From a virus (Duplodnaviria; Heunggongvirae; Uroviricota; Caudoviricetes), in IMG/VR virus record IMGVR_UViG_2617270954_000001: a stretch of 39,980 bases of DNA, one strand, 5' to 3'. The notes below the pieces were generated by a model. The model worked only from the letters and a program-made list of their open reading frames with translations. It ran no database searches and was not told the DNA's origin. Positions 22,678 to 36,975 of the stretch are shown piece after piece. How positions within the stretch are numbered: position 1 is the stretch's first letter; every line of letters starts with the position of its first letter. Both the position numbers and the translations under genes were made by a program.

Positions 22678-23113
22678 AACCTCGTCTAGTTGTTCGTCAT
22701 AGATTCAGTGGCTGGCGGTGACGATTCCGCTTTTCGGGAGCTACCCTAGCCACTGTTTTATTCTATCCGATGTCTTTCCATCAGTCCGCCACCACAAAGA
22801 ATCTTTTTTGCCATAAGGCAGGAGGTTCATCTTTCAGTGGCTGCCAGTGTTATTTCCCCACTTACTGGCTTGGGTTGTTTCGCTGTACTGCCGTAACTGG
22901 TTGCCCAGAATAAATTCCGGTTTCATTATCAAGCCCACCCGTAGATAGGCTTTGTAATGAACTGGCTCTTATCTCAACGCAGCCCCTTACCGCGCGCCAG
23001 ATGCTCAACTTCAAGCATCAGCAATGAGATGTTTAATCTGGATTCACTCCAGAAGTGATCACCACCCTGTCTACAGAGCCAGATGTGAAGGATGATAAGT
23101 AAAATTATCGCTA

Positions 23114-23581: not shown

Positions 23582-24054
23582 ACCTCAATCTCTCTGACCG
23601 TTCCGCCAGCCTCTTTGAATTTTGCAATCAGGCTGTCAGCCTTATGCTCGAACTGACCATAACCAGCGCCCGGCAGTGAAGCCCAGATATTGCTGCAACG
23701 GTCGATAGCCTGACGGATATCACCGCGATCAATCATCGGTAAAGCGCCACGCTCTTTAATCTGCTGCAATGCCACAGCGTCCTGGCTTTTGGGAGAGAAA
23801 TCTTTCAGGCCAAGCTGCTTACGATAGGCATCCCACCAACGGGAAAGAAGCTGGTAACGTCCGGCGGCTGTTGATTTGAGTTTGGGGTTTAGCGTGACAA
23901 GTTTGCGAGGGTGATCAGAGTAATCAGTGAATAGCTCTCCGCCTACAATGACGTCATAACCATGATTTCTGGTTTTCTGTCGTCCGTTATCAGTCCCCTC
24001 TGACCACGCCAGCATATCGAGGAACGCCTTACGTTGATTATTGATTTCCACCAT
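23578..24054 (-). CDS. R: Endolysin, lambda R-type lytic transglycosylase
   Basis: 158 aa; sequence essentially matches lambda R as I recall it. Confidence 0.95.
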
Positions 24055-24361
24055 CTTCTACTCCGGCTTTTTTAGCAGCGACGCGTTTGATAAGCGAACC
24101 AATCGAGTCAGTGCCGATGTAGCCGATGAACACGCTCGTTATATAAGCGAGATTGCTACTTAGTCCGGCGAAGTCGAGAAGGTCACGAATGAACCAGGCG
24201 ATAATGGCGCACATCGTTGCGTCGATTACTGTTTTTGTAAACGCACCGCCATTATATCTGCCGCGAAGGTACGCCATTGCAAACGCAAGGATTGCCCCGA
24301 TGCCTTGTTCCTTTGCCGCGAGAATGGCGGCTAACAGGTCATGTTTTTCTGGCATCTTCAT
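24038..24361 (-). CDS. S: Holin, lambda S-type with MKM dual start
   Basis: 107 aa [41 protein letters not shown]..., near-identical to lambda S107/S105. Confidence 0.95.
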
Positions 24362-24603
24362 GTCTTACCCCCAATAAGGGGATTTGCTCTATTTAATTAG
24401 GAATAAGGTCGATTACTGATAGAACAAATCCAGGCTACTGTGTTTAGTAATCAGATTTGTTCGTGACCGATATGCACGAGCAAAACGGCATGAGGTTGTT
24501 AGCGCAGCCTCTTGCCACCCGCTTTCACGAAGGTCATGTTTAGAAGGCCGCAGCGTAACTATCACTGATGAATTCAGGATAGCCAGTGGCTACGGCTCAG
24601 TTA

Positions 24604-24679
24604 TGGTGCTGGTTAACGGACTTGAACCGCTACCCATTCGCTTACAAGGCGACTGCTCTACCATTGGAGCTAAACCAGC
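24604..24679 (-). tRNA. tRNA-Thr (anticodon UGU)
   Basis: Hand-folded 76-nt cloverleaf: 7-bp acceptor stem GCTGGTT/AACCAGC, D-arm GCTC-CAATGGTA-GAGC, anticodon loop CTTGTAA, T-arm AGCGG-TTCAAGT-CCGTT, discriminator A, CCA. Confidence 0.65.
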
Positions 24680-24684
24680 ATGTT

Positions 24685-24759
24685 TGGCGGGACAGCGTGG
24701 ACTCGAACCACGATAAGAAGGTTAACAGCCTTCCGTAATGACCTTTATACGACTGACCC
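24685..24759 (-). tRNA. tRNA-Asn (anticodon GUU), somewhat degenerate
   Basis: Hand-folded 75-nt cloverleaf: anticodon stem GAAGG/CCTTC, loop CTGTTAA, T-arm CGTGG-TTCGAGT-CCACG, CCA; one T-T mismatch in the acceptor stem and a weak D-stem. Confidence 0.55.
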
Positions 24760-24761
24760 AA

Positions 24762-24821
24762 ATAAAAAAGCCACCGTTGCAACTTAAGAGTCACTAACGG
24801 CAGCTTACCTGCTAATTATGG
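24762..24821 (-). promoter_or_regulatory. Late promoter / qut / tR' region downstream of Q
   Basis: Minus-strand hairpin GCUGCCGUU...AACGGUGGC (two G-U pairs) followed by UUUUUUAUUU just after Q, in the position of lambda PR'-tR'. Confidence 0.5.
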
Positions 24822-25340
24822 CTAAATGGCTAATTGCATGTCAAGGCTTTTAACAGCAACATGCTTAACTTTCTCAACACGTTTACGCATTTTGAAAGCA
24901 TTTTGCATTGGCTGGTACAAAACAAATAACGACGCTTTCAGGATGTCGTCAATTTCGTTTCTACAGGTTGCCAGTGAAGGTTTTCTCCATCCCTCGCCAC
25001 CACGTCCACACATCTTGCGTGGCTTTGCAGTCGCGTGATAGTAGGATGCAATTGCTCGCTTAGATGAACCATGAGCGTAGTAGCTGAGGAGGATGCCAAA
25101 GGCTTTCTTGTCAATGTACATGACGGAATCGACGACCTGAGAAATCAACATTCCATCATCATCATTACACATTGGCCTTGTCATAATTCTTCCCGGCTCT
25201 ACGCTCTCCATGAACTTCGCTATTACGCTGCTCATGCGCTTTTCCAGACGACCTGAATAAACCCATGCGCCCCACAGTTCAAGCCAGCCATTCAGCCACT
25301 CATGCTGTTCTTTGGTGAGGTTTAGTTCTCTTATGCCCAT
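24822..25340 (-). CDS. Late-gene antiterminator Q-like (P22 gene 23 position)
   Basis: 172 aa; Cys-containing motifs; immediately upstream of the late terminator and lysis genes. Confidence 0.65.
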
Positions 25341-26002: not shown

Positions 26003-26186
26003 CTCTTTCACTCCATCCGCGATGAACCATGAGAACGTCGTTGACGATGGCGTGCATTTTCCCGTCTTTATCATCAACGTATTTTCTGACCGTACCGCGA
26101 CTACATTTCAGTCTGCGTGCTACTTCTGTCTGGTTTCCGTATGCTTCAACGAGCATGTCTGGAATGGTTTTTACTGAGAACGTCAT
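25980..26186 (-). CDS. ninH: NinH
   Basis: 68 aa [37 protein letters not shown]..., matches lambda NinH as recalled. Confidence 0.9.
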
Positions 26187-26794
26187 GCGGCCTCACTTCT
26201 GCTATTTCGCAGGTCTTTGAGTTTCTGCTGATACTCCGCCTTGATGGCCCTGCACTCTTCGACAGTCCAGCGATGGCGGTTATGGTTTGATTCGATTTCG
26301 TCTACTGCTTCCTGCCCGATGCGATTAATCAGTTCGACGCGATACGGAACGAGATTTCCGCTTTTGTGCTGGTTGCACACCACGCATTGCTTGTGAATAT
26401 TGCGTTCATCAAATCGGAGTTGAGGTGCCGCAGCAGTTGTCCGGTAATGTCCGGCATCCCACTGAGCAGACGTGAGCGTTCCGCACGAGATACATGGTAA
26501 GTCGCGGTCTCTTTCTCTGATGAAGGCGTTTACGGCTTGTTGGGCTTGTTTAATCCAGTAACTGCGGGGCTTTAAGGCGAGTTTTCGAATCTTAAGTTTA
26601 TCTTTCTGTTTCTGCTCCTCTCGTCGTCGTTTCTTCTCTGCTGCTTTTTCCGCTTTTTCGCGTTCTTTGCTTCGTCGTTCGAGTGCTATCTTGGTTCCAC
26701 ACTCTGGAGAGCACCACCACTGATTAGCGAATGCAGGGTGAAACCATTCCCGACATTCATCGTTTTTACATCGTCTTCGCGCTGGTTTAGCCAT
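26183..26794 (-). CDS. ninG: NinG / Rap recombination-associated endonuclease
   Basis: 203 aa; Cys-rich N- and C-terminal clusters, basic Lys/Arg/Glu-rich linker; lambda NinG-like. Confidence 0.9.
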
Positions 26795-35577: not shown

Positions 35578-35666
35578 AGGTGTTCGCGTCTTTTTAAATG
35601 CGGCAAAGACTGAAGTATTAAATCAGCGTTATTTCCTTGGGCCATGCCCATTCTGAGAACAAACAT

Positions 35667-36272
35667 ATGAGCAAAGAATTTTACGCAAGACTGGCAGCTA
35701 TTCAGGAGAACTTGAACGCGCCAAAGAATCAGTACAACTCATTCGGTAAATATAAATACAGAAGCTGCGAAGACATTCTTGAAGGCGTTAAGCCGTTACT
35801 GAATGGCCTGTTTTTATCAATCAGCGATGAAGTTGTGTTGATTGGTGATCGGTATTACGTGAAAGCCACGGCAACTATTACCGATGGCGAAAACAGTCAT
35901 ACGGCAACCGCTCTTGCACGAGAGGAAGAAAGCAAGAAAGGAATGGATTCTGCACAAGTTACGGGAGCTACAAGCTCTTATGCACGCAAGTATTGCCTCA
36001 ATGGTTTGTTCGGCATTGATGATGCGAAAGATGCAGATACCGACGAGCATAAACATCAGCAGAACGCAGCAGCAAAGCAATCAAAACCATCACCTACACC
36101 TGAACAGGTTCTAAAAGCATTCACTGACGCAGCATTGCAGAAAAACACCGTGGAAGAGCTTAAACAGGCGTTCGCCAAAGCGTGGAAGATGCTCGAAGGC
36201 ACACCGGAGCAGCACAAAGCGCAGGACGTTTACAACATCAGACGAGACGAATTAGAAGGAGCTGCTGCTTAA
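35667..36272 (+). CDS. erf: Erf-family single-strand annealing protein (track ORF starts at 35637)
   Basis: ERF-family N-terminal motif (KYRSCEDILEGVKPLL), Gln/Ala-rich C-terminal tail; P22 Erf-like position. Confidence 0.8.
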   Translation: MSKEFYARLAAIQENLNAPKNQYNSFGKYKYRSCEDILEGVKPLLNGLFLSISDEVVLIGDRYYVKATATITDGENSHTATALAREEESKKGMDSAQVTGATSSYARKYCLNGLFGIDDAKDADTDEHKHQQNAAAKQSKPSPTPEQVLKAFTDAALQKNTVEELKQAFAKAWKMLEGTPEQHKAQDVYNIRRDELEGAAA

Positions 36273-36678: not shown

Positions 36679-36975
36679 ATGCCAGCGCCTCTGTATGGTG
36701 CGGATGACCCGCGCCGCTGTTCCGGCAATTCCGTATCGGAGGTGCTGGATAAATTCAGGAAAAACTACGACCTGATAATGTCGCTACCGCAGGAAACGAA
36801 AGAGGAAAAGGAATTTCGCCATTGTATATGGCTTGCAGAGAAAGAAGAACGCGAGCGAATTTACCAGACATCAATCCGACCATTCCGCAAAGCCACATAC
36901 ACCCACTTCCCTGAATATATCGACCCGCGCCTGCGTAATTACCGCTCACGCTATGGCGCTATCAGTAATGACTGA
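36679..36975 (+). CDS. Hypothetical protein, possibly Abc2-like anti-RecBCD
   Basis: 98 aa directly after the recombination genes, where P22 carries abc2/abc1; assignment by position and size only. Confidence 0.4.
   Translation: MPAPLYGADDPRRCSGNSVSEVLDKFRKNYDLIMSLPQETKEEKEFRHCIWLAEKEERERIYQTSIRPFRKATYTHFPEYIDPRLRNYRSRYGAISND

Follow-up and report, generated by a model that had tools for sequence, protein, structure and literature searches.

The locus considered here raises the question of why a phage should carry a tRNA-Asn and a tRNA-Thr gene between its late terminator and its holin gene. A sequence-only reading of the window (the whole 39,980-nt stretch of DNA analysed) had proposed two cloverleaf tRNAs there, Thr-UGU and Asn-GUU, 5 nt apart on the late strand. 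ARAGORN found exactly two tRNAs in the window, both on the minus (late) strand, and together with Rfam it bore out the proposal with exact coordinates: tRNA-Asn(GUU) at 24685..24759 (-), a 5-nt spacer, AACAU, at 24680..24684 (-), and tRNA-Thr(UGU) at 24604..24679 (-). The reading had listed the tRNAs as Thr then Asn; both identities are correct but the order of transcription is Asn then Thr. It had also named tRNA-prediction programs as the appropriate check: ARAGORN called both genes, and with Rfam RF00005 (gathering score = 29) the tRNA-Thr scored 61.5 bits (E = 4e-11) and the tRNA-Asn 55.3 bits (E = 2e-9) in a search of the whole window, far above the gathering score. Both matches were full length (model positions 1-71 of 71).

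The tRNA-Asn is 75 nt long, with G73 and a 4-nt variable loop; the tRNA-Thr is 76 nt long, with G1:C72, C2:G71 and U28-A42. Both have a 3' CCA encoded in the DNA. The anticodon loops (Asn, CUGUUAA; Thr, CUUGUAA) each have 7 nt, U33 and a purine at position 37, both D-loops contain GG (G18 G19), and the T-loops are UUCGAGU and UUCAAGU, respectively. The first D-loop base of the tRNA-Thr is C (U in some alleles) instead of the usual A14. The acceptor-stem mismatch and weak D-stem that had been noticed in the tRNA-Asn are real, and correspond to U4•U69 and U13•U22. The tRNA-Thr has a mismatch of its own, G27•A43 at the top of the anticodon stem, which leaves a stem of 4 bp; this was absent from the earlier reading. 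In E. coli, the identity set for AsnRS is G34, U35, U36 and G73, and that for ThrRS is G1:C72, C2:G71, G35 and U36. All four AsnRS elements are present in the window tRNA-Asn and in 15 of 17 alleles. Among the tRNA-Thr alleles, G1:C72 is found in 19/20 and C2:G71 in 20/20, and the UGU anticodon is invariant. Judged by sequence, both are intact genes for functional elongator tRNAs, with aminoacylation predicted from the identity elements.

The setting is that of a phage 21-type late operon, and the placement of the tRNAs on the late strand between the late terminator and the holin gene, as originally read, agrees with both the gene order and the Sf6 annotation. Adjoining the cassette upstream is a Q-type late antiterminator gene of the phage 21 Q family (24822..25340 (-); a 172-aa ORF matching PHROG 943, 'anti-termination protein Q-like', with E = 6e-93), whose counterpart is Sf6 gene 59, 'similar to phage 21 Q'. 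The late promoter PR' (TTGACA-18 nt-CATAAT; 24815..24844 (-)) matches 11/12 consensus positions, and the homologous site in the Sf6 record is PR', 'nearly identical to phage 21 late promoter'. A short late leader RNA with the qut region and terminator tR' follows (24760..24809 (-)), comprising a hairpin at 24768-24806 (-20.2 kcal/mol; z = -4.26; 0/200 shuffles equally stable) and a U-rich tail at 24760-24767. The U-run stops at 24760, one base ahead of the tRNA-Asn 5' end; in the phage 21 record, a 50-nt 'aRNA' also stops one base short of the tRNA-Asn. In the Sf6 record, PR', qut, tR' and the two tRNAs are already marked. Between the tRNA-Thr and the holin start there is an untranslated stretch of 242 nt (24362..24603 (-)), defined by alignment with HK75 and CUS-3, which is common to relatives without tRNAs; HK75/CUS-3 homology resumes 2 nt past the Thr CCA, and the CUS-3 record labels its counterpart 'bsq3 boundary sequence'. 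The first protein gene of the late operon is then the dual-start holin/antiholin gene (24038..24361 (-); a 107-aa ORF equivalent to Sf6 genes 60/61). A consensus scan for a separate tRNA promoter found only PR', and the terminator tail and the tRNA-Asn leave no room for one between them. Because the tRNAs are located behind tR', we infer that their expression is Q-dependent.

Identified by its close relatives, the cassette is the known late-leader tRNA cassette of phage 21 and Sf6, whose genes have already been described and annotated in GenBank. The window is ~98.6% identical to Shigella phage Sf6 across the 1.4-kb Q-to-lysis segment, and phage 21, Sf6 and SfI share the same tRNA pair, the place directly after tR', a 21-type Q and the 5-nt spacer. 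From Sf6 there is no difference of substance; Sf6 ninG is interrupted by IS911, whereas the window ninG ORF is intact. The tRNA pair is identical to that of phage 21 (AJ237660) at 166/166 nt, as are the ARAGORN sequences, and is 98-100% identical to those of Sf6, SfI, HK446 and several Salmonella phages. In total, the pair was found in 59 phage records and, at a coverage of at least 80%, in 361 of 5,426 complete E. coli genomes (~7%). Among species-representative genomes there were only 6 matches (Escherichia sp., E. albertii, Shimwellia, Phytobacter and two short gut-MAG contigs), too few for a host-range analysis; the two gut-MAG contigs are probably mis-binned. The window Asn allele is the majority allele (84/120 viral contigs), as is the Thr allele. 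The spacer was AACAT or AATAT in 92 of the cassettes sampled, and the same terminator lay upstream of ~83/120 sampled cassettes. Pairing is near-obligate: an Asn-family gene lies upstream in 103 of 104 Thr-family genes.

Many temperate phages use tRNA genes as integration sites and harbour tRNA fragments, and it could be argued that the pair is a relic of an integration site, gained by imprecise excision. One viral contig carries a chimera, phage Thr in its 5' half and host thrU in its 3' half, with a glyT-like gene after it, which shows that recombination with the host thrU operon occurs. However, the window genes are full length with their own CCA, and the Asn and Thr tRNAs are only 61.5% identical to asnT and 70.5% identical to thrU, respectively. 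Using blastn, 1,043 of the 5,426 E. coli genomes were matched, none of them at host tRNA loci. The cassette is moreover in the late-operon leader, ~23 kb from the putative integrase (a 397-aa ORF at 549-1742, assigned from its position only). Given the full-length genes, the low host identity and this distance, we rejected an attP relic, the probability of which is practically nil.

The sequence-only reading had suggested that the tRNA-Asn may be a 'decaying or specialised' copy. If the Asn gene, or both genes, were a decaying, hitch-hiking remnant without function, then non-standard pairs such as U4•U69 and U13•U22 would be readily accounted for, as would the poor folding of the tRNA-Asn, which alone has no clean D-arm at minimum free energy and a z-score of only -1.7. 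HK75, CUS-3 and P22 are close relatives that manage without the cassette, and some copies look damaged: L144 has the anticodon GAU and two further changes, and in ST64T the anticodon arm of the second gene is rewritten. Set against this are the Rfam score of 55 bits and the occurrence of the identical sequence in phage 21, Sf6, SfI-type and Salmonella phages and hundreds of E. coli prophages, with the Asn anticodon loop, T-loop, G18 G19, G73 and CCA all intact. Compensatory double changes were seen at six stem pairs of the tRNA-Asn and at four of the tRNA-Thr. For both tRNAs the covariation score was not reached by any of 500 shuffles, and 90-94% of alignment cells were paired compared to 22-53% with the partners slid, although these alleles are near relatives of one another and the search pattern had fixed the Asn D-arm in advance.

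The irregular pairs themselves behave as retained features. Three diverged Asn lineages retain U4•U69, with covariation at the adjacent pairs. No Asn copy seen has lost U13•U22, not even those with other D-arm changes: IUPAC patterns with a non-T at Asn position 13 or 22 gave 0 matches in 2.9 million viral contigs, and Thr-anchored sampling returned D-arm variants elsewhere but none restoring the 13:22 pair. Both this D-stem, with its U13•U22, and the 4-nt variable loop recur in glyT, a functional tRNA-Gly(UCC) of E. coli. In the tRNA-Thr, G27•A43 is kept in 20/20 alleles. On the comparison of alleles, what looks structurally odd in the two tRNAs is conserved and not a sign of decay. A pseudogene, which we rejected on Rfam score, conservation and covariation, is extremely improbable. 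Of the two possibilities originally raised for the tRNA-Asn, decay is contradicted by the majority allele, the covariation and the retained oddities, whilst specialisation stands, but in a sense that had not been foreseen, namely nuclease resistance (below).

The position of the cassette could alternatively mean that the tRNAs serve as a processing element or insulator, with RNase P and 3' processing freeing the late mRNA from the Q-modified leader and the amino-acid identity being incidental. Such a cut would set the 5' end and the stability of the late mRNA. In two terminator contexts unrelated to each other, the tRNA-Asn begins right against the U-run, and alignment with HK75 and CUS-3 shows cassette boundaries flush with the tRNA ends. 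This slot holds other tRNAs in other phages: Phe, Arg, Gly and Leu, or, in 933W, Ile, Arg and Arg. This reading would leave unexplained the near-obligate Asn and Thr pairing, the conserved identity elements and the rescue activity of the tRNA-Thr, and since relatives with the same Q, tR' and holin have no tRNA at this place, processing is not required; we consider it very improbable. ARAGORN found no tRNA remnants in the cassette-free HK75 and CUS-3, and in HK75 Rfam gave only a sub-threshold tmRNA/tRNA-like 3' fragment.

The comparison with 933W-type phages drawn in the sequence-only reading holds, in that the 933W record has ileZ, argN and argO in this late-leader slot, downstream of Q and between PR', qut and the terminators on one side and stx on the other. 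Nonetheless, the two arrangements differ. In 933W the tRNAs are Ile and Arg rare-codon decoders, fitting a supply of AUA and AGA/AGG, whereas those of the window are Asn and Thr. The 933W record also has a separate putative tRNA promoter and ~370 nt from the first terminator to the tRNAs, whereas in the window the first tRNA begins one base past the terminator tail.

A pure codon-supplementation role would have the tRNAs only raise the decoders for ACA and AAU/AAC during the late protein burst, and the codon-usage comparison suggested at the outset supports this in part. Using a phage ORF set chosen with strand rules and a host sample of 42 E. coli K-12 genes, ACA accounted for 31.4% of phage Thr codons (16.4 per 1000) against 10.2% (5.4 per 1000) in the host sample, a 3.0-fold excess (odds ratio 4.0, p = 4e-24). 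Restricted to the late operon, the ACA share of Thr codons was 27.5%. The SfI paper likewise reported ACA at 17.3% vs 7.1%, the phage L paper suggested supplementation for capsid AAC codons, and in the host ACA is decoded by thrU alone, a single-copy gene (PMC12445682). For asparagine the outcome was different: Asn codons overall were 1.3-fold enriched, AAC was not enriched and AAU was weakly so (1.8-fold). The SfI paper found no Asn bias and no rationale for the tRNA-Asn. Furthermore, AGA (9.9x), AGG (8.4x), AUA (4.7x) and UCA (3.4x) were all more strongly enriched than ACA, yet there is no phage tRNA for these codons. The supply claim thus stands for ACA but does not fit Asn. The accompanying suggestion that AT-rich morons depend on the tRNAs is unlikely, because the tRNAs lie behind tR' and would be Q-dependent, while the AT-rich O-antigen acetylase gene is on the other strand and outside the late operon.

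Codon supply cannot explain the tRNA-Asn and is inadequate alone. Nor does it explain why the anticodon stems differ from those of the host exactly at nuclease-critical pairs, why the Thr 27:43 mismatch is kept in all 20 alleles, or why phage Thr tRNAs protect from P2-OLD when host-type thrU gives little or no protection (PMC12445682). As the sole role of the cassette we judge it unlikely.

The nuclease-critical pairs are known from two 2025 papers (PMC12445682, PMC12409363) on the Toprim nucleases P2-OLD and PARIS AriB, for which host tRNA-Thr(UGU) is a prime target and tRNA-Asn(GUU) a secondary one. P2-OLD cuts the thrU anticodon stem at a paired CNG motif (nt 28-30 and 40-42) together with A37 (PMC12445682). 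The same study showed that 'tRNAThr21', which has C28U/G42A and a shorter anticodon stem, resists cleavage and rescues cells; C28U/G42A alone in thrU gave no protection, the shortened stem being needed too, and Thr tRNAs rescued cells only in part. For AriB, the targets are Lys(UUU), Thr(UGU) and Asn(GUU) and the cut lies between positions 40 and 41, with U36-A-A-U39, nt 41 and the D-loop U16 as determinants (PMC12409363).

The window tRNA-Thr has both of the published P2-OLD resistance features: UCG/CGA where the host has CUG/CAG, and a 4-bp stem via G27•A43, in 20/20 alleles. It has the phage 21 sequence, and of the two published rescue tRNAs, tRNAThr21 and tRNAThr6, it matches tRNAThr21 in C28U/G42A and the short stem. 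Its resistance is carried over only through identity with the AJ237660 copy. The published tests were on plasmid-expressed tRNA, whereas here the gene is in its native place behind tR'; the neighbouring Asn gene goes unmentioned in that work (PMC12445682), and the tRNA-Asn of phage 21 and Sf6 is not mentioned in PMC12409363 either. Earlier genome papers called its significance unclear, and we found no experiments on this cassette's tRNA-Asn in the literature. The window tRNA-Asn has AAG/CUU where host asnT has CGG/CCG; the CNG motif is altered, but this is weak evidence since a tRNA 60-70% identical to its host counterpart would be expected to be motif-free by chance. The Asn alleles of Mulock-type (a Klebsiella phage) and a15 have C28-G42 with CNG present (CAG/CUG or CUG/CAG). 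The Asn anticodon stem is not shortened, with five standard pairs from G27-C43 to G31-C39 in 17/17 alleles.

The AriB determinants are also altered in both tRNAs. The CNG pair and UAAU, present in host asnT and thrU, are missing from both window tRNAs, whose D-loops also differ from the host's. Around U39 and nt 41, the Thr sequence is UAAGCG (host UAAUCA) and the Asn sequence UAACCU (host UAAUCC), and the D-loops CAAUGGUA and AAAGGUCA, compared to AGUAGGUA and AGUCGGUA in the host, have U16 substituted. The T5 tRNAs that neutralise PARIS AriB, Lys(UUU), Thr(UGU) and Asn(GUU) (PMC12409363), share two of three anticodons with the window and have substitutions at the same places (position 39 breaks UAAU, 41 is changed and there is no D-loop U16). 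However, T5 is virulent, has a large tRNA set and its sequences are unrelated. Neither of the two window tRNAs is a tRNA-Lys(UUU), the AriB prime target, a resistant version of which is required against PARIS (PMC12409363); the cassette should therefore not suffice against the PARIS system studied.

The best explanation, which we regard as probable, is a functional late-leader cassette that mainly replaces host tRNAs destroyed by Toprim nucleases. From their position, the tRNAs would be transcribed from the 5' leader of the late operon when Q allows RNA polymerase to read through tR', and host tRNA-processing enzymes would then cut the mature tRNAs out of the late transcript. [quoted passage not shown] The tRNA-Thr, as in phage 21, would resist P2-OLD via U28-A42 and the stem shortened by G27•A43; the tRNA-Asn, which has neither the motif that OLD cleaves nor the determinants of AriB, may be a second resistant replacement. 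Extra decoding of ACA, used threefold more than in the host, would be a secondary benefit. RecBCD inhibition is the trigger of P2-OLD (PMC12445682), and the phage encodes Abc2 (36679-36975), an anti-RecBCD protein and candidate trigger in the manner of lambda Gam. There is a tension in timing, in that the position behind tR' would delay the tRNAs until Q is present, whereas an early function sets off P2-OLD; the Q gene itself has an ACA codon.

A stronger version of tRNA replacement, tentative and somewhat short of an even chance, is that the Asn and Thr pair is a module of two parts dedicated to counter-defence in temperate lambdoid/P22-like phages, directed against OLD-family Toprim nucleases (P2 old of competing prophages, PARIS-like systems). 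A28-U42, C39, the altered D-loop and perhaps U4•U69 of the tRNA-Asn would then be resistance determinants rather than decay, and the near-obligate pairing would arise because both host tRNAs are co-targeted by the same enzymes.

The tRNA genes themselves are textbook-level annotation (phage 21, Sf6, SfI, ST64T/L) and not a new discovery. The identical tRNA-Thr proved in 2025 to be nuclease-resistant and to defeat P2-OLD, which settled a 50-year-old question of P2-lambda interference. What is added here is that the oddities of the tRNAs are conserved, that the tRNA-Asn goes beyond codon supply, and that the targets common to two Toprim nucleases are exactly Asn(GUU) and Thr(UGU), giving a testable reason for their pairing. 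With ~7% of complete E. coli genomes carrying the cassette in a prophage, it may influence prophage coexistence and induction beside P2-like or PARIS elements.

Exactly two tRNA genes were called by ARAGORN in the whole window, both on the minus strand: tRNA-Asn(gtt) at 24685-24759 and tRNA-Thr(tgt) at 24604-24679. Both match the Rfam tRNA model (gathering score 29) at full length, with 55.3 bits (E = 2e-9) and 61.5 bits (E = 4e-11), respectively. The transcribed order is Asn then Thr, with AACAU in between, and each gene encodes its own CCA. The sequence-only reading had the coordinates, anticodons and 5-nt spacing right by both tools, and the flaws it saw in tRNA-Asn are genuine (non-standard pairs U4•U69 and U13•U22); it overlooked a G27•A43 mismatch in tRNA-Thr. 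Its observation is confirmed, and its interpretation is partly supported overall.

Upstream on the minus strand lie a Q-type antiterminator gene (25340-24822; PHROG 943, E = 6e-93), a promoter (TTGACA-18-CATAAT, 24844-24815) and a 50-nt leader in which a strong hairpin (-20.2 kcal/mol, z = -4.3) precedes UUUUUUAUUU. tRNA-Asn begins one base past this terminator tail; 242 nt of untranslated RNA separate tRNA-Thr from a dual-start holin gene starting at 24361 (minus). We infer that both tRNAs are expressed in a Q-dependent manner and excised from the late transcript. Two other RNAs matched Rfam at gathering level: sar RNA, the P22 immI antisense RNA (6912-6977, plus; 63.7 bits), and the int-alpA RNA motif (22694-22756, minus; 42 bits), the latter located between the lysis genes and the small terminase gene of the late operon.

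The tRNA pair has been described before. Shigella phage Sf6 is 98.6% identical across a 1.4-kb segment around the locus, and its GenBank record annotates PR', qut, tR', tRNA-Asn and tRNA-Thr, each as 'similar to phage 21'. IS911 interrupts the ninG homologue in that record whereas the window ninG-like ORF (26183-26794, minus) is intact, so the window is an Sf6-like phage or prophage rather than the sequenced Sf6 isolate. The 166-nt pair is 100% identical in phage 21, whose record has a 50-nt terminated 'aRNA' that stops one base before the Asn gene. At ≥80% coverage, 59 phage records carry the pair, as do 361 of 5,426 complete E. coli genomes. The SfI genome paper reports the same tandem downstream of Q, also in Sf6, ST64T, PS3 and phage 21; it found an ACA bias but no Asn bias, and called the significance of tRNA-Asn 'not clear'. 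The phage L paper places the Sf6 Asn and Thr tRNAs here and leaves open their excision from late mRNA. The comparison with 933W made from the sequence was correct: that phage carries ileZ, argN and argO between PR'/qut/terminators and stx2. Short contigs assigned to Segatella copri and Collinsella MAGs (L194, L198; genome_contigs) carry the cassette too; they are almost certainly mis-binned enterobacterial prophage fragments.

The mismatches had suggested a decaying Asn copy, and this did not hold up. With only 61.5% (Asn versus asnT) and 70.5% (Thr versus thrU) identity to the host genes, the pair are not copies of them. A search for the Asn D-arm pattern in 2.9 million viral contigs gave at least 120 matches; of the 120 listed, 84 have the window Asn allele, making it the majority form, and the window Thr allele is likewise in the majority (61 copies among the matches listed). 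Compensatory double changes were found at six pairs in Asn (17 alleles) and four in Thr (20 alleles); none of 500 shuffles reached the observed covariation score, and the signal was lost when partners were slid. The mismatches themselves are retained. Position 4:69 is unpaired in 15 of the 17 Asn alleles, with U4•U69 kept in three diverged lineages whose neighbours 5:68, 6:67 and 7:66 have co-varied. The pattern search of the viral collection found no Asn copy in which position 13 or position 22 alone had changed, and U13•U22 is kept in all Asn genes with other D-arm changes in the Thr-anchored sampling. The D-stem, U13•U22 included, and the 4-nt variable loop recur in identical form in E. coli tRNA-Gly(UCC), so this architecture is workable in a normal host tRNA. 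G27•A43 is present in 20/20 Thr alleles. The identity set for AsnRS is G34, U35, U36 and G73, and that for ThrRS is G1:C72, C2:G71, G35 and U36; each is complete in the corresponding window gene. Both genes are real, conserved and known.

A14 is nearly universal at the first D-loop position of tRNAs; after the 4-bp D-stem of the window Thr (24666) the base is C, or U in four alleles, and this C/U is conserved across the Thr family and might bear on how nucleases recognise the D-loop. In one IMG/VR contig (L144), the Asn-family gene upstream of Thr has the anticodon GAU (Ile by ARAGORN) and two more C-to-T changes, which points either to decay of this copy or to a shift of its anticodon.

Codon supply had been suggested for both tRNAs, and a strand-curated phage set (73 ORFs, 12,877 codons) was compared with 42 annotated E. 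coli K-12 genes (14,748 codons). ACA is over-used (31.4% versus 10.2% of Thr codons; odds ratio 4.0, p = 4e-24), at 16.4 versus 5.4 per 1000 codons (3.0x). Asn codons as a whole are at 48.5 versus 37.7 per 1000 (1.3x), AAU being enriched 1.8x and AAC not at all. Codons for which the phage has no tRNA are each enriched above ACA: AGA (9.9x), AGG (8.4x), AUA (4.7x) and UCA (3.4x). Codon supply is therefore a plausible role for Thr but leaves Asn unaccounted for. An O-antigen acetylase-like ORF of 640 aa (1959-3881, plus), a moron on the opposite strand from the tRNAs and outside the late operon, has a GC content of 0.34, much lower than elsewhere in the window, and uses ACA at 19 of its 29 Thr codons and AAU at 28 of its 38 Asn codons. 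Since the tRNAs lie behind tR', morons expressed in the lysogen are unlikely to depend on them as proposed.

The Q gene, terminator, downstream leader and holin gene are common to the window, HK75 and CUS-3, but in the latter two unrelated DNA fills precisely the interval from the terminator tail to 2 nt past the position of the Thr CCA. Judged by these boundaries, the tRNA pair is a discrete module. In Thr-anchored sampling, an Asn-family gene lies upstream in 103/104 Thr-family members. The slot also varies: Klebsiella phage Mulock has Asn-Phe-Thr-Arg, ST64T and L have Asn plus a rewritten second gene, and others have Asn, a phage/host thrU chimera and a glyT-like gene. In eight such IMG/VR loci (L015, L038, L084, L086, L095, L104, L116, L114) the chimera lies ~80-230 nt downstream of Asn and fuses a 5' half of phage type (acceptor and D-arm) to a 3' part resembling host thrU; the anticodon stem is down to 3 bp in seven of them, where ARAGORN makes no call. 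A glyT-like tRNA-Gly(UCC) comes next in these loci. These chimeras look like recombination of phage tRNA-Thr with the host thrU-tyrU-glyT operon. The second tRNA of ST64T (L002, 787-855; same gene in phage L) has Thr-type acceptor, D and T arms and a rewritten anticodon arm (Rfam 42 bits; no ARAGORN call); named Leu(UAA) in the phage L paper, it is either anticodon-switched or damaged. The HK75 filler (L129, 705-763) ends in a tRNA/tmRNA-like 3' fragment made up of a T-arm and the 3' strand of an acceptor stem (GGTTCGATTCCGGCCGCCACAACCC; Rfam 20 bits, sub-threshold), possibly a relic of a different tRNA formerly in the slot.

Cleavage of host tRNAs by P2-OLD depends on A37 and takes place at a paired CNG motif (nt 28-30 and 40-42). 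Cells are rescued by phage-encoded Thr(UGU) tRNAs, and the phage 21 tRNA-Thr ('tRNAThr21'), with C28U/G42A and a shorter anticodon stem, is protective and cleavage-resistant; host tRNA-Asn(GUU) is among the slower substrates tracked by northern blot (Govande et al., NAR 2025, PMC12445682). PARIS AriB cuts between positions 40 and 41, with determinants U36-A-A-U39, nt 41 and D-loop U16, and PARIS is neutralised by T5 Lys, Thr and Asn variants jointly (Belukhina et al. 2025, PMC12409363). Host thrU has the CNG pair CUG/CAG at nt 28-30/40-42, UAAUCA at nt 36-41, D-loop AGUAGGUA and a 5-bp anticodon stem; the window Thr has UCG/CGA, UAAGCG, CAAUGGUA and 4 bp (G27•A43). It agrees exactly with tRNAThr21 (U28-A42 and the 4-bp stem) and, by sequence, is the tRNA with published anti-OLD activity. 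Host asnT likewise has the CNG pair (CGG/CCG), UAAUCC, AGUCGGUA and 5 bp; the window Asn has AAG/CUU, UAACCU, AAAGGUCA and an intact 5-bp stem, has neither the OLD motif nor the AriB determinants, and would be predicted to be nuclease-resistant.

A nuclease-defence reading has several weak points. A tRNA this far removed from the host sequence would be expected to lack the motif by chance, motif change without a shortened stem is insufficient (PMC12445682) and the window Asn stem is full, and Klebsiella-type Asn alleles have the CNG motif. The cassette has no tRNA-Lys(UUU), so the studied PARIS system should not be defeated, and the tRNAs would appear only once Q is made. The window also encodes an Abc2 anti-RecBCD-like 98-aa ORF (36679-36975, plus; PHROG 656 'abc2 anti-RecBCD', E = 1e-56) adjoining Erf-like (35637-36272) and SSB-like genes. 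As P2-OLD is set off by inhibition of RecBCD (PMC12445682), Abc2 is a candidate trigger. The pairing of Asn with Thr may reflect both host tRNAs being co-targets of the nucleases, and the sole element here that is new to the accessible literature is our proposal that the Asn partner would be a second nuclease-resistant replacement.
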